A stretch of 64,000 nt of DNA from a virus, in IMG/VR virus record IMGVR_UViG_3300044988_000363. The stretch is one strand, 5' to 3'. Both the position numbers and the translations under genes were made by a program. The notes beneath the pieces were generated by a model. That model worked only from the letters and a program-made list of their open reading frames with translations. It had not been told where the DNA came from and searched no databases. This document shows positions 3,860 to 62,058 of this stretch, one piece after another (position 1 is the stretch's first letter; each line of letters opens with the position of its first letter).

Positions 3860-4261
3860 CTAATCCTTGATTGTGATTGTCGTAGATTCACCTTTGGTCA
3901 TATTGTAAAGAGTGTAAGCGTTATTTGGACTCAACCGAACGCATCCGTGACTAGCAGGTCGACCCAAATTGCCCACGTGAGGGGTAGCATGAATAGCATA
4001 ACCACCAGAAAAGAATATAGAGTGCGGCATGGGAGCATTGTCATATTTCTTTGAATAATGTATAGGCTGATAAGAATAAGGGCGGAAAGTTCCAGTTGGC
4101 GTATAATATCCCTTCCGGGCTGTAGATACTGGCCAACGTTCAATTAACTCTCCATCCTCGTAAATTGTCATTGACTGGCTGCGTTTCGAAACTACTATAT
4201 CATAGTTTGCTAGAGCAGAGGTAGAGAATAGAACTAATGCAGAGATCAGTAGTTTGTTCAT
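3860..4261 (-). CDS. Secreted L,D-transpeptidase (YkuD family)
   Basis: Signal peptide; WPVSTAR, YAIHAT..LGRPASHGCVRL catalytic motif. Confidence 0.9.
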   Translation of the reverse strand: MNKLLISALVLFSTSALANYDIVVSKRSQSMTIYEDGELIERWPVSTARKGYYTPTGTFRPYSYQPIHYSKKYDNAPMPHSIFFSGGYAIHATPHVGNLGRPASHGCVRLSPNNAYTLYNMTKGESTTITIKD

Positions 4262-4743: not shown

Positions 4744-4820
4744 TGGCGATCCCGGCACGATTCGAACGTGCGACCCACAGATTAGAAGTCTGTTGCTCTA
4801 TCCAGCTGAGCTACGGGACC
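4744..4820 (-). tRNA. tRNA-Arg(UCU)
   Basis: GGTCCCG acceptor, AGCTCAGCTGGATAGAGC D-arm, ACAGA-CTTCTAA-TCTGT anticodon arm, GTTCGAATC T-loop, encoded CCA. Confidence 0.95.
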
Positions 4821-4858: not shown

Positions 4859-5074
4859 GTTGTTTATACAAACATTCCAAAAATGCCAGAAAGAACAAAG
4901 AACGTAATTGCAGAAGCCAATGTGATCTCAATTACGCCTGTCGCCCAATAACCCAGAATAGCTCCCAGAAATAGACCTGCAACGGCGCAGATATAGACAT
5001 TAGTACTGAGAGCAAAGTTGAACTCACGCATACCCGTATATTTGTCTTTGTTACTCATAATATATCCTTTCAAA

Positions 5075-5235
5075 ATGAAAATGCGACTGTTCTGTTTCTA
5101 GGTCAGTCGCCAACCCAATGAGGATTAAGCTGCTAGAGCGTAACCTTCAAATGATGCATCATTATCGTTTGCATCTACGTTTCGCCTTTGGTCTCCTCGA
5201 AGCCTTAATGTAGATAATCGAGCCTATACACCCCC
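5075..5235 (-). ncRNA. ssrA: Two-piece (permuted) tmRNA, coding piece
   Basis: 5' end GGGGGTG; tag frame GCAAACGATAAT...GCAGCTTAA = ANDNDASFEGYALAA*; terminal GCGACTG/CAGTCGC hairpin; 3' boundary approximate. Confidence 0.92.
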
Positions 5236-5236
5236 A

Positions 5237-5701
5237 TCATAAACTGACATATGGATTCGTTTTTTTCATAACAGATTTTAATCTACCACGAACCCAATCT
5301 TTAGGATAATCCTCTAAAGAGAACTGTCCTTCGGAAACGCCATCATTGAACCAATATCTCTTGTTTCTAATTTTTCTGCCATCTGTTCCTTTTTCATAAG
5401 GAGAAGGAACGCCTGATCTTATCCATTTACCAGTGGCAGATTTCTTACCATTTCCCCATCTAATAGCATTGGTTATTGCAGCGCCTTTTTTTGCTCCTTC
5501 ACGAATTGCTATAAAAGTGCATTCGTCAGAAGTAAGAAGACCTAACAAACCTTTCCAAGCCAATAAATCTTGCCAGTGACCATGTGTTTCATATAAAACT
5601 CTATGGGCTTCGGCATGTTCTTCAATAGTAAGTTCTATCAAGTTATTTGGTTCATCTGTTCCGCCTAAATGTTTGGGAACAATATGATGTATGTGTTTCA
5701 T
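5237..5701 (-). CDS. HNH homing endonuclease inside the tmRNA intervening segment
   Basis: HIHHIVPKHLGGTDEPNNLIELTIEEHAEAH HNH motif; C-terminal WFNDG...WVRGR module. Confidence 0.85.
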   Translation of the reverse strand: MKHIHHIVPKHLGGTDEPNNLIELTIEEHAEAHRVLYETHGHWQDLLAWKGLLGLLTSDECTFIAIREGAKKGAAITNAIRWGNGKKSATGKWIRSGVPSPYEKGTDGRKIRNKRYWFNDGVSEGQFSLEDYPKDWVRGRLKSVMKKTNPYVSL

Positions 5702-5703
5702 TT

Positions 5704-5745
5704 AATCCTCCTGTCAATCATACTTATTTATAATAGACAGGATTT
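5704..5745 (-). promoter_or_regulatory. T4-type late promoter in the loop of an RBS-sequestering hairpin
   Basis: Minus strand CCTGTC-tatTATAAATAagtatgatt-GACAGG(AGG); the right arm contains the Shine-Dalgarno of the HNH gene. Confidence 0.8.
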
Positions 5746-5755
5746 TATCAGTTTA

Positions 5756-5825
5756 TGGTGGAGGTGAGGGGATTCGCACCCCTGTCTTACCAACCTATAT
5801 GCTAAGTCTCAACGACCTCGGCAAA
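5756..5825 (-). ncRNA. ssrA: Two-piece tmRNA, acceptor piece
   Basis: AGGGG-TGCGAAT-CCCCT T-arm then CACCTCC-A-CCA; pairs with GGGGGTG at 5235 including the G3:U70 alanine determinant; 5' boundary approximate. Confidence 0.9.
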
Positions 5826-5886
5826 CTTTATTTATTCTTTTGGAATTTCGTTTTCAAATTCTTCAATTAGGGGATGTGGTGGTTCT

Positions 5887-6794
5887 TTAGTGGCACGGTC
5901 TGTTAGAACTGTCCCGTACAATGCACTTACCGACGGTCGCCAACTCAGCGCAGCCAGCAACACCCAGACTAAGACACACCATTGCTATTGCTATATAAAC
6001 CTTTTTCATTCTTATCCTCCGGATTATAATCGTGCTTTTCAGTTTCATGAAGAGCAACAGAAAACCATTCAGTAGAACCTTCACGTTGATACTGAAGATC
6101 CTGCATTGGAACCATTACCATTTCCTTAGTCTGAGGATGAACCATCATCTTAGGAAACATTACCATACGAAAATCTACAATCGGCTTTTTCTTATCAACG
6201 CCTCCCGTTGGGAGACTGCTAGCAGCAATTGCACCATCTGGTCCAAGAATACTCATGTCTTTTGTCCTTTTACCTTTTCAAGCAACTGACCTAGATATTC
6301 AATCGCTTTATCATTAAATGTAACGTCGTCTAAAACACCAACAACGCAATATTGCTTTGCTGCCATTGCATTTCCATCCGAAGACTTATCGTATTCAATG
6401 ATAAACAGATGCCGATCTTTGGACATCATAACTTCATTCATCTTATCATTCTTTATACCATTATAAAGAGTAACAAGAGCTTTATCATCAATCATCTTCA
6501 TAAATTCTTTATTTTCATAACACTTCAATTCTGACTCTGCTGATAAAGCAGAGCCAGTTAACATTGAAGAGATAATCACACCATACATGATATTCTTCAT
6601 CATCACTTCCTTGTGGTTACTTCCTGAACCTTTTGAGCAACCTTTTGATAATCAATCTTACCAAAATTGGTTGGACGCTTTGGAGGTAGAGGAACTTCAA
6701 CATACTTTGTAACTGGAGGCGCAATAACGTCGCCAGCAATTGCACTACCACCCATAAGCATGGCAGCGATAGTCGATAAGATAATCTTATTCAT
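5887..6794 (-). CDS. Run of four small hypothetical proteins, several with signal peptides or a lipobox
   Basis: Abutting ORFs 6603-6794, 6253-6606, 5969-6256 and 5887-~6008, three with hydrophobic N-termini. Confidence 0.55.
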
Positions 6795-6968: not shown

Positions 6969-8096
6969 TCATTGAACCACCCTCAACAAAATCGTGTTCT
7001 CGTTGATACGATACGCAAGAGGCTTTTCTGTCTTGAGATCATCAAGGACTTTTCGTAGAACAAGTTTACCACCCTCAAGTATGCGCTTGAGAAAATCGTT
7101 CGGTTCTTTCCTGCCCACAGAGCGGGAAATAGAACTACTTTCGTCATAGTTCGTAATGCTAGTTCCCTTGACCTGTAGCCCACCACGATCAATCGCTGTA
7201 AGCCTCGTAATCGTCTTATACTTTGTATTGAAAGTCCAGAGTTCCATTGCACCGATGATTTTTTCCGGTGACACTGAAGCAATTTTATAAGTTGCATCTT
7301 CCTTTTGGAACTTGAGACCCTTGATCTTCTTCTCAACTGATACTGCTCGTGGCTTGCGAGCCGTTCTAACTTTCTTCGTATTTGAAGAATATCTCTCCGC
7401 ATCTTCGATGAGGGTGTTGTAGAACGAGACGAGTTTCTTGATTTCTGTCTTTTTAAGGTGACGATAACCTTCTTTAAGCTGATCATCTTTTCCCTCATAC
7501 GCTTCAAGCAATTCGTCGAGCACTGGGGAAAATTTAGCAATGATTGAAGTAGCATAGGCTGCAGGAATATTGTTGCTCTGCAGCCACTCATACATCGAAA
7601 ACTCTACATTCTCGTAGATGTAATCGTCAATCAATCCTTCAATCTCTCCCAAAATATCATGAGTTTTCTCACGCATACGATCCTGGATAGAAATCCTCGG
7701 AGTTTCTGATTCCTCCTTGGGTTCTTCCTTCGCCTTGTCCCACATATTTAGGATCTTAGAACTGAAAAACTGCATCGTAGTTCCCGATGGCTTATGACCA
7801 CGAGAGATCATACGTGCAATCCAAGCAGCAGTCAAAGGAATATCTACGTCGGAGATCCTCGAAAGCTTCTTGGCTAGGTCTGGCTTACCAGTGTTCTTGA
7901 AATATTCCTTTAGATAATCACGAGCATCATTGGCAGTGCACATGTAGTTATACCATGTGAAACACTGACCCTCGTTGACATCCTGGGTCATAAGAGGCTC
8001 GTCGCCCAGATATTTCTTGTTCACAATATACTGTTCGGATCGAGAGACCCGAATAGTCTTTGGTTTACGCTTAATGAGTGCTGGGCGACGAGCCAT
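6969..8096 (-). CDS. Hypothetical phage protein (~375 aa)
   Basis: Long ORF with an AAGGAG RBS before MARRP; no family recognised. Confidence 0.7.
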   Translation of the reverse strand: MARRPALIKRKPKTIRVSRSEQYIVNKKYLGDEPLMTQDVNEGQCFTWYNYMCTANDARDYLKEYFKNTGKPDLAKKLSRISDVDIPLTAAWIARMISRGHKPSGTTMQFFSSKILNMWDKAKEEPKEESETPRISIQDRMREKTHDILGEIEGLIDDYIYENVEFSMYEWLQSNNIPAAYATSIIAKFSPVLDELLEAYEGKDDQLKEGYRHLKKTEIKKLVSFYNTLIEDAERYSSNTKKVRTARKPRAVSVEKKIKGLKFQKEDATYKIASVSPEKIIGAMELWTFNTKYKTITRLTAIDRGGLQVKGTSITNYDESSSISRSVGRKEPNDFLKRILEGGKLVLRKVLDDLKTEKPLAYRINENTILLRVVQ

Positions 8097-8150
8097 GAAT
8101 ATCTCCTTCAATCGTATACATATTATACTTTATATAAGGGTCAAAGACAA

Positions 8151-8228
8151 CTAAATATTATTGTCCGTCACGAGTTGGGAGCTCTACGGACTCTAACGCT
8201 AAGAAGGAGCATCAGCATGGATATTTAT
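8151..8228 (+). promoter_or_regulatory. Conserved two-hairpin leader, copy 2
   Basis: CTAAATA..GTCCGT-cac-GAG-ttgggag-CTC-t-ACGGAC-TCTA-ac-GCT-aagaagg-AGC-at-CAGC-ATGGATATTTAT. Confidence 0.8.
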
Positions 8229-8645
8229 GATCCAATCGGTAAAGCATTAGGTCTCGAACCTATCGAATTTAATTATGATATAAAAACCTATTGTCCAGAC
8301 CAAGAAATTATTCCTTGGAACAAAGGTTTGACAAAAGAAGATCCTTACGTCGCTGAAATAGGCAAAAGAATTTCTCAAGCAAAACAAAATAATCCTACCA
8401 AACCTTGGAACAAAGGTTTGACAAAAGAAGATCAACGTGTAAGAGAAAACTCTATAAAGGCAGCTAATACTAAAAAACAGCAGGGGTTTTATAAAGATTG
8501 CGGAAAATATCTCCCTAAACTCATAGGAGATAAAAATCATATGAAGTCTTCAGAACATAGAAAACGTATGTCTGAATTAGCTTCTAGAAGATATAAAAAA
8601 TGGAACGAGGACGGTAGCTGGACTTGGGGCTACCGTCCTCTGTAA
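8217..8645 (+). CDS. NUMOD-like DNA-binding-repeat protein with no recognisable nuclease domain
   Basis: PWNKGLTKED twice, SEHRKRMS; antisense to neighbours; start at MDIYD after the conserved leader. Confidence 0.6.
   Translation: MDIYDPIGKALGLEPIEFNYDIKTYCPDQEIIPWNKGLTKEDPYVAEIGKRISQAKQNNPTKPWNKGLTKEDQRVRENSIKAANTKKQQGFYKDCGKYLPKLIGDKNHMKSSEHRKRMSELASRRYKKWNEDGSWTWGYRPL
8313..8433 (+). repeat. 31-bp exact direct repeat (8313-8343, 8403-8433)
   Basis: CCTTGGAACAAAGGTTTGACAAAAGAAGATC x2. Confidence 0.95.
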
Positions 8646-61988: not shown

Positions 61989-62058
61989 AGACCGTTAGCT
62001 CAATGGTAGAGCACCGCATTGTAGTGGTAGGTTCGAGGTTCGATTCCTCGGCGGTCCA
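61989..62058 (+). pseudogene. Degenerate tRNA-like element
   Basis: Intact TAGCTCAATGGTAGAGC D-arm and CGAGG-TTCGATT-CCTCG T-arm, 6-bp acceptor, irregular anticodon arm. Confidence 0.6.

Follow-up and report, generated by a model that had tools for sequence, protein, structure and literature searches.

A nuclease gene in the intervening segment of a two-piece tmRNA gene

The stretch of DNA analysed here, 64,000 nucleotides (nt) of the IMG/VR virus record IMGVR_UViG_3300044988_000363 and hereafter called the window, carries a circularly permuted, two-piece gene for transfer-messenger RNA (tmRNA; gene ssrA), and the intervening segment (IVS) between the two pieces holds a complete gene for an endonuclease of the HNH family. 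The window is part of a freshwater T4-like myophage with an alpha-type circularly permuted tmRNA; it encodes a T4-type DNA polymerase, a single-strand DNA-binding protein, a DnaB-like helicase and other T4-like functions. Its DNA polymerase is ~49-50% identical to those of marine T4-like phages, and the exact stretch was found in lake-water and freshwater metagenome runs from 2016 to 2025. The IVS of a two-piece tmRNA is removed by tRNA-type processing, with RNase P acting at G1 and 3′ trimming to the CCA. Read along the minus strand, the locus contains the following features.

5829..5836, minus: T4-type late-promoter-like motif AATAAATA upstream of the acceptor piece, a putative promoter
5756..5822, minus: tmRNA acceptor piece (3′ half, tRNA-like domain), from the Rfam RF04321 match (from 5817) and the fold; probable 5′ limit at 5822, from alignment with relatives
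5783-5767, minus: T-arm, 5 base pairs (bp) and a 7-nt loop, read directly and in the fold
5766-5760, minus: acceptor 3′ strand CACCTCC, pairing with GGGGGTG at 5235-5229 in a 7-bp stem
5759, minus: discriminator A73, read directly
5758-5756, minus: encoded CCA, read directly
5236..5755, minus: IVS, 520 nt, absent from the mature tmRNA under the two-piece maturation model (RF04321 insertion state; short IVSs in HNH-free relatives)
5746..5755, minus: 5′ arm of the basal IVS helix (trailer after CCA), pairing with 5240-5249; covariation across 65 alleles
5709..5742, minus: putative regulatory hairpin of the HNH cassette, stem 5742-5736 with 5715-5709 (RNAfold, -15.1 kcal/mol)
5237..5701, minus: HNH homing-endonuclease gene, 154 amino acids, catalytic core at residues 3-33 (phrog_655, Pfam, profile, model)
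5236..5249, minus: 3′ arm of the basal helix and TGAT leader, also the last codons and stop of the HNH open reading frame (ORF), from sequence and fold
5235, minus: G1, first nt of the acceptor 5′ strand GGGGGTG (5235-5229)
5080..5235, minus: tmRNA coding piece (RF04321, RF01849, ARAGORN tag)
5172-5125, minus: tag frame from the GCA resume codon to TAA, peptide ANDNDASFEGYALAA (ARAGORN on trimmed constructs)
5110-5083, minus: terminal hairpin of the coding piece followed by a T-run, read in the coding piece
4744..4820, minus: tRNA-Arg(TCT), downstream and in the same conserved tmRNA-tRNA module (ARAGORN, Rfam)

The original prediction, made from the letters of this DNA, described an acceptor piece ending CACCTCC-A-CCA at 5756 and a coding piece starting with GGGGGTG at 5235 and carrying a tag, separated by about 520 nt with a complete HNH gene inside. 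Both pieces lie on the minus strand at exactly these positions, the tag runs from GCA to TAA at 5172-5125, and the IVS measures exactly 520 nt with an ORF of 154 amino acids. The acceptor stem contains G3.U70 (T at position 70), and the tag reading frame opens with the GCA resume codon and ends ..ALAA plus stop.

That the two pieces score as a tmRNA was likewise borne out. The Rfam model tmRNA_permuted (RF04321; gathering cut-off 47 bits) matches 5817..5125 on the minus strand at 52.8 bits (E 1.8e-7) over the full model, 1-213, and its alignment places ~500 nt of the IVS in a loop insertion state. The alpha_tmRNA model (RF01849; gathering cut-off 50 bits) stays below gathering in the window, where the coding piece alone matches (5246..5080, 28.5 bits), because the 520-nt insert breaks the model; RF01849 scores are 52-135 bits in relatives and 56-99 bits in the HNH-bearing loci L119, L108 and L121. 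ARAGORN found no tmRNA in the intact window, reporting only the tRNA-Arg(TCT) (4820..4744) at the locus, yet with the IVS interior deleted, the check suggested alongside the original prediction, it detected a permuted tmRNA with tag ANDNDASFEGYALAA in five of five trimmed constructs. Run on intact HNH-bearing alleles it found a tmRNA in 0 of 24. These misses are a limit of the tool and no evidence that a tmRNA is absent; the IVS cassette explains the failure on all 24.

The HNH protein and its relatives

The HNH ORF is the sole ORF in the window IVS. It is preceded by a ribosome-binding site, GGAGG (5711-5707), and by an in-frame TAA just 5′ of its ATG, and its stop codon TGA (5239-5237) is followed by T5236 and then by G1 at 5235, so that, as predicted, it ends 1 nt before the tmRNA. 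The protein matches phrog_655, 'homing endonuclease' (E 6.8e-14), and a profile of its clade matches HNH domains in the PDB with E values of 6e-6 to 6e-4. Residues H5, H6 and N20 are invariant in 13 clade members, and N20, H29 and H33 in a set of 52 sequences, across which H5 and H6 are nearly invariant.

In an AlphaFold2 model (predicted local distance difference test, pLDDT, 85) the HNH core superposes at 0.9-1.1 Å over 34-39 columns on pyocin, colicin and Cas8-HNH domains (Foldseek). The Foldseek E-values are weak because the match to the core is short; against the PDB there was no full-length match to the protein, the core alone aligning, and the C-terminal two thirds of the clade are without a clear solved or named relative. 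The HNH ORFs of the clade are intact, and pairwise ratios of nonsynonymous to synonymous substitution (dN/dS) are mostly 0.1-0.5 (median 0.30); the protein is under purifying selection.

A protein search found 335 relatives. The nearest named ones are the MobB-like free-standing endonucleases of phages VR7 and Cronus, 29-34% identical over ~90% of the protein. In a tblastn search of 50,697 phage records for a cultured-phage member of the clade, no full-length match was better than Mob-like genes at 29-34% identity, which occupy other sites. Where a relative has just the N-terminal HNH core in common with the clade and a different C-terminal domain, its gene mostly does not adjoin a tmRNA; site specificity therefore probably resides in the C-terminal part.

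tmRNA alleles with and without the HNH gene

Using the 380-amino-acid protein encoded upstream of the tmRNA (6969..8111) as a query, we retrieved 80 related IMG/VR loci. A permuted tmRNA stands at the syntenic place in 62 of the 80 according to ARAGORN, and in 10 more according to Rfam. All fetched loci were then scanned for the combination of T-arm, acceptor 3′ strand and CCA with a complementary GGG.. strand, which gave 65 unique alleles. Forty-one of these are HNH-free, with ORF-less IVSs of 23-117 nt, and 23 (24 with the window, at 520 nt) are HNH-bearing, with IVSs of 464-531 nt. The HNH cassette is a presence/absence polymorphism among related phages. Locus L028 carries the cassette of the window itself, with 94% protein identity over 34 residues, to the end of its contig.

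The remaining allele, that of L023, has an IVS of 242 nt, in which a 68-amino-acid ORF with its own ribosome-binding site (L023:6011-6217, plus strand) lies right after the CCA and before an otherwise normal IVS hairpin. No PHROG match was found for this ORF.

The association extends well beyond the close relatives. Exact-identity look-ups of homologues 44-75% identical to the window protein placed seven of seven inside a permuted tmRNA IVS; their T4-like genomic contexts differ, as do their acceptor stems and tags, and freshwater and TARA ocean metagenomes are among the samples. A profile scan of IMG/VR with the HNH clade gave 80 loci and 35 near-full-length matches, 30 of which lie in a tmRNA IVS (26 by the acceptor-pair scan and four by Rfam tmRNA hits spanning 670-800 nt). 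By these genomic positions, a whole HNH clade is tied to tmRNA genes. In two of the 35, L097 and L116, the same cassette lies directly upstream of an intact short-IVS tmRNA.

Three further arrangements were seen near tmRNA genes. In L097 (1490-1975), where the cassette precedes the tmRNA, a leader fragment is duplicated and the start codon is shifted. L025 encodes, at 2210-2686 on the minus strand, a 158-amino-acid endonuclease with the same HNH core and a different, Cys-rich C-terminus (phrog_655, E 1.1e-23); its gene runs the opposite way, is placed between a tRNA-Arg and a short-IVS tmRNA, and overlaps that tmRNA gene at its 3′ end. Finally, a beta-type permuted tmRNA (L130:1093-1448, minus strand; RF01850, 122 bits) adjoins a gene with the N-terminal HNH core, and tmRNA-linked nucleases may therefore extend beyond alpha-type genes.

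Flanking sequences of HNH-bearing alleles

L101, which has the HNH gene, and L040, which does not, form a closely related pair. Their flanks are 90-97% identical, while the entire IVS differs, basal helix included (514 versus 73 nt). The acceptor 3′ strand is CTGGTCC in one and CGCCTCC in the other, and its partner strand GGGCCAG versus GGGGGCG, so that both acceptor strands, together with the closing T-stem pair, have changed compensatorily. This pattern is what would be expected of a short co-conversion tract around a homing event.

The tmRNA of the window is likewise a mosaic. Its acceptor piece is 89% identical to that of the HNH-bearing L081 and 75% to that of the backbone relative L004; the corresponding values are 92% and 63% for the first 40 nt of the coding piece, and 78% and 86% for the next 120 nt. 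The upstream backbone gene is 81% identical to that of L001 and 68% to that of L028, while for the acceptor piece taken with the HNH 5′ end the identity to L028 is 88%. DNA identities of HNH and tmRNA are also uncoupled, at 75% versus 64% between the window and L084 and 75% versus 62% between L093 and L095. The mosaic and discordant flanks suggest homing without proving it.

A search for changes that would confer target-site immunity found no consistent difference between HNH-bearing and HNH-free alleles in the first 40 nt of the coding piece, and an exact-pattern scan of viral contigs with the T-arm and acceptor sequence of the window gave 0 matches. One 228-nt contig from an RNA library (run X19) is 100% identical to the window acceptor piece (5754-5835) and continues into a trailer of the HNH-free type (TAGATACACC..); somewhere, therefore, there is an HNH-free allele that shares this upstream 'exon'.

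A basal helix shared by HNH-bearing and HNH-free precursors

The original prediction had noted that trailer and leader can extend the acceptor stem by 12 positions with one mismatch, and that the leader arm consists of the last HNH codons. Both statements hold: 5236..5249 encodes the final codons and stop, and the 12-position pairing, whose one mismatch is a C.A, forms in the precursor fold. Folding of the 555-nt segment 5783..5229 to minimum free energy gives a structure in which the T-arm and the 7-bp acceptor stem occur together with a continuous extension of that stem, 20 end-to-end pairs with this one mismatch, and the pair probability is at least 0.996 for the eight pairs of 5755-5748 with 5240-5247.

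To compare alleles, we scored how well the 12 positions at the start of the IVS pair with those at -16 to -5 relative to G1 and evaluated this by 10000 permutations. Within the 41 HNH-free alleles, own-allele pairing averages 9.98 of 12, versus 8.00 across alleles, and within HNH-bearing alleles 10.83 of 12 versus 7.37; in either set, 0 of 10000 permutations reach the observed value. Several pair types occur at most positions of the helix. The helix is thus kept at least as well in HNH-bearing alleles.

The further proposal, that this clamp co-evolved with the HNH gene, found no support in that form: the same helix, with covariation, is present in 41 HNH-free alleles, and an origin of the helix together with the HNH gene is rejected. 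Because of its presence in those alleles, the basal helix is ancestral to these precursors. TGAT closes the leader in 33 of 41 HNH-free alleles and in 21 of 23 HNH-bearing ones, and, with the helix ancestral and this leader conserved, the stop codon of the HNH gene is therefore the TGA of the ancestral leader. Of the 23 unique alleles whose ORF could be scored, 19 have a stop that ends 1 nt short of G1; four alleles have an ORF that continues for 7-27 nt inside the coding piece. HNH-bearing alleles have in common a TAA..TTA signature at the helix base, which a minority of HNH-free ones show, a distribution that is consistent with helix arms travelling with the cassette, as is the case in L101 and L040.

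A hairpin with a late-promoter-like loop

The hairpin upstream of the HNH gene holds in its loop the late-promoter-like sequence TATAAATA (5732-5725), in the same orientation as the gene and ~25 nt before its ATG, and the ribosome-binding site begins within its 3′ arm. A hairpin with compensatory changes in its stem recurs at this place in about 20 other HNH-bearing alleles. Most of these have TAAATA in the loop, 27-36 nt upstream of the last base of the ATG, and in most the 3′ arm touches or overlaps the ribosome-binding site. A late promoter combined with a hairpin that sequesters the ribosome-binding site has been described for I-TevI, I-TevII, I-TevIII, Aeh1 mobE and segB, where long transcripts bury the ribosome-binding site and late transcripts starting inside the hairpin are translatable (PMC2988022). 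The sequestering hairpin with TATAAATA in its loop, an observation new to this analysis, matches this T4 arrangement.

A second motif, NATAAATA, which in the window occupies 5836-5829, precedes the CCA by 64-70 nt in 48 of 66 unique alleles, against a background of 0.69 TAAATA per kb in these loci. Its fixed spacing from the CCA suggests late transcripts with a 5′ end near the start of the mature acceptor piece. Judged by their sequence and position, NATAAATA and the internal TATAAATA are both candidate promoters.

A probable homing endonuclease in a segment that would be discarded without splicing

We consider it highly probable that a free-standing HNH homing-endonuclease cassette occupies the tmRNA IVS and moves between phage tmRNA genes without an intron. 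The central idea of the original prediction, that a homing endonuclease uses the discarded IVS as a splicing-free site, is supported by the patchy occurrence of the cassette among alleles, by its identical IVS position in divergent phage tmRNAs and by the mosaic flanks; no intron family of Rfam, group I included, matched at the gathering threshold across the window, nor at E values of up to 0.1 within 4950-5950. During co-infection, the nuclease would cut or nick HNH-free phage tmRNA genes, and repair would copy the whole IVS with short stretches of both flanks. Because both acceptor-stem strands border the IVS, they would be co-converted jointly and stay complementary. The HNH gene would cost the phage little, because tRNA-type processing removes the IVS anyway, and the ancestral basal helix would bring both ends together across the 520 nt. 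In transcripts from the upstream promoter the HNH ribosome-binding site would be partly buried in the hairpin, while the late-promoter-like TATAAATA in the loop could start transcripts that are without the hairpin 5′ arm and hence translatable.

Several points weigh against this interpretation. The Pfam HNH score of the protein (PF01844) lies marginally under the cut-off, at 21.0 versus 21.4 bits. Mosaic flanks could stem from recombination that is independent of a nuclease, and the 12-bp extension of the acceptor stem could hinder RNase P instead of helping it. Two pattern scans of metagenome contigs for an HNH-free allele with the window acceptor piece gave 0 matches. The exact HNH protein is indexed in 108 blocks of an assembly collection, and the one locus shown, together with eight similar places, represents a single genomic context. 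The cassette is seemingly fixed in this phage and no isogenic HNH-free allele was found by the pattern scans; ongoing homing in the lineage is therefore not shown. Contigs from RNA libraries that touch the locus, one from each of two runs (5754-5835 and 5756-5867, each followed by an HNH-free-type trailer), cover the acceptor piece alone and come from HNH-free alleles; being assembled contigs, they are uninformative on transcription, RNA ends and processing.

Other explanations of the locus place the weight elsewhere. The two pieces might derive from separate transcripts, with NATAAATA serving the acceptor piece and the internal TATAAATA serving HNH and coding piece, and assemble in trans without excision of the IVS as a unit. 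An internal TATAAATA (5732-5725) that points the same way and precedes the ATG by ~25 nt would suit this route, as would a stop codon 1 nt before G1, by which any HNH mRNA runs into the coding piece. However, no terminator-like element follows the acceptor piece, so transcripts from upstream should read through, and folding in cis is the simplest reason for HNH-bearing alleles to have kept the covarying basal helix (10.83 of 12). We regard assembly from separate transcripts as unlikely, and since both routes may coexist it is more a complement than an alternative. Far less probable is that the insertion inactivated the tmRNA and that the nuclease gene is lodged in a decaying gene, which we consider hardly credible. 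The RF04321 score of the window (52.8 bits) is indeed far under the 75-131 bits of its relatives, and a D-loop-like element reads CTCGAT instead of the usual TTCGAC, but the low score is mainly an insertion penalty, and the locus retains all helices, G3.U70, the CCA and an intact tag frame. Among HNH-bearing alleles, ARAGORN shows an intact tag in 16 of 24 and inspection by eye in two more, and T-stem changes between the window and L028 or L081 are compensatory. HNH-bearing alleles have 13 different acceptor-stem sequences, all with T at position 70; the full pairing of these stems carries no weight, as the allele scan required it.

The HNH protein might also have been domesticated as a phage factor, acting in tmRNA precursor handling, DNA packaging or inter-phage competition, and so be no selfish homing gene. 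Purifying selection, apparent fixation in this widespread lake phage and a tightly conserved gene position would all fit such a role. Among close relatives the gene is nonetheless patchy, with one of 80 syntenic loci carrying it apart from the window, L097 and L116 have the same cassette upstream of their tmRNA, the flanks are mosaic, and the nearest named relatives are the T4 MobB-like mobile endonucleases; we judge domestication very improbable.

Returning to the mobile cassette, a broader view, which we put forward tentatively and think rather doubtful, is that the IVS of phage two-piece tmRNAs is a general splicing-free safe harbour for mobile genes and that homing there actively reshapes the tmRNA. 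At least two kinds of cargo occur at the IVS site, among them the HNH clade and the unrelated 68-amino-acid ORF of L023. Each homing event would swap the IVS and both acceptor strands, so that nuclease traffic would move tRNA-like domains between phages. With 1 nt between the HNH stop and the RNase P site (19 of 23), cleavage would leave an HNH mRNA that ends right after its stop. Such an mRNA might terminate poorly and undergo trans-translation, by which the host RNA would limit its own parasite.

Relation to known systems

Homing-endonuclease genes are thought to persist in introns, in inteins or between genes. Here, a nuclease clade appears to hide within a single essential-type RNA gene, in a spacer that the cell's tRNA-processing enzymes discard, so that no ribozyme is needed. 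In full-text literature searches, no account came up of a two-piece tmRNA whose IVS contains a nuclease gene. The cassette offers a natural test of the distance that a two-piece tmRNA precursor tolerates between its halves, and a compact HNH enzyme whose target in ssrA is probably long and conserved; nuclease-driven co-conversion is also suggested to spread tRNA-like domains between aquatic phages.

T4 SegB (PMC2988022) comes close, as a free-standing nuclease gene in a non-mature spacer between stable-RNA genes that ordinary tRNA processing removes. SegB, however, is a GIY-YIG enzyme encoded in a tRNA cluster between two separate genes, whereas the window gene belongs to the HNH family and lies inside a single RNA gene whose halves must pair. 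The T4 Mob-type HNH enzymes (MobE and the MobB-like proteins of VR7 and Cronus) share the same compact N-terminal HNH core but have other insertion sites and targets, in protein-coding regions; the MobB-like genes of VR7 and Cronus are annotated as homing endonucleases between genes 2 and 3. ORF-bearing IVSs of bacterial 23S rRNA are cut out with no rejoining of the ends, and the rRNA functions in fragments. Some bacterial 23S rRNA IVSs with an ORF, such as the Coxiella burnetii IVS with S23p, resemble the present case as ORF-bearing selfish elements in a stable-RNA precursor (PMC4990558), although there the RNA is rRNA, excision is by RNase III and the ORF is not a known nuclease. In 'fractured genes', a free-standing homing-endonuclease gene lies between the halves of a split-intein gene whose product is reassembled (PMC2677866), by protein trans-splicing there and by base pairing of two naturally separate RNA pieces here.

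Within tmRNA genes, group I introns, some with LAGLIDADG homing-endonuclease genes, are known in the T-loop (PMC11915505). They too are selfish elements, sometimes with a homing endonuclease, that interrupt a tmRNA gene without destroying it, but they self-splice and religate the RNA, whereas the window IVS would be removed by processing that every two-piece tmRNA needs. The 2025 tmRNA database paper describes homing-endonuclease genes solely inside these T-loop introns, and the unusual contents it names for permuted IVSs are a tRNA-Ala gene and a repetitive element (PMC11915505). Two-piece tmRNA genes are known in the marine T4-like phages Melnitz and the pelagimyophages, which share with the window a phage-borne, alpha-type permuted ssrA near the gene for a late-transcription co-activator; the words HNH and homing are absent from that report, so no homing-endonuclease gene in an IVS is reported there, and its tmRNAs were detected with ARAGORN (PMC9004378), the tool that recovered none of our 24 HNH-bearing alleles.

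Other features of the window

In many related loci the tmRNA is followed by a tRNA. Downstream of the tmRNA-tRNA module, at 3860-4261 on the minus strand, lies a gene for an L,D-transpeptidase (YkuD, E 7e-23) with a signal-peptide-like N-terminus, which is conserved in the related loci L081-L083 and L179. At 8151-8645 on the plus strand, a CTAAATA motif, hairpins and a ribosome-binding site precede a small ORF (ATG at ~8218) that is oriented against its neighbours and encodes two PWNKGLTKED repeats of the NUMOD3 type; it is a further endonuclease-like insert of this phage. A tRNA-like gene at 61989-62058 on the plus strand scores 39.6 bits with the Rfam tRNA model and has, according to ARAGORN, an abnormal anticodon loop ('tg' at position 32).

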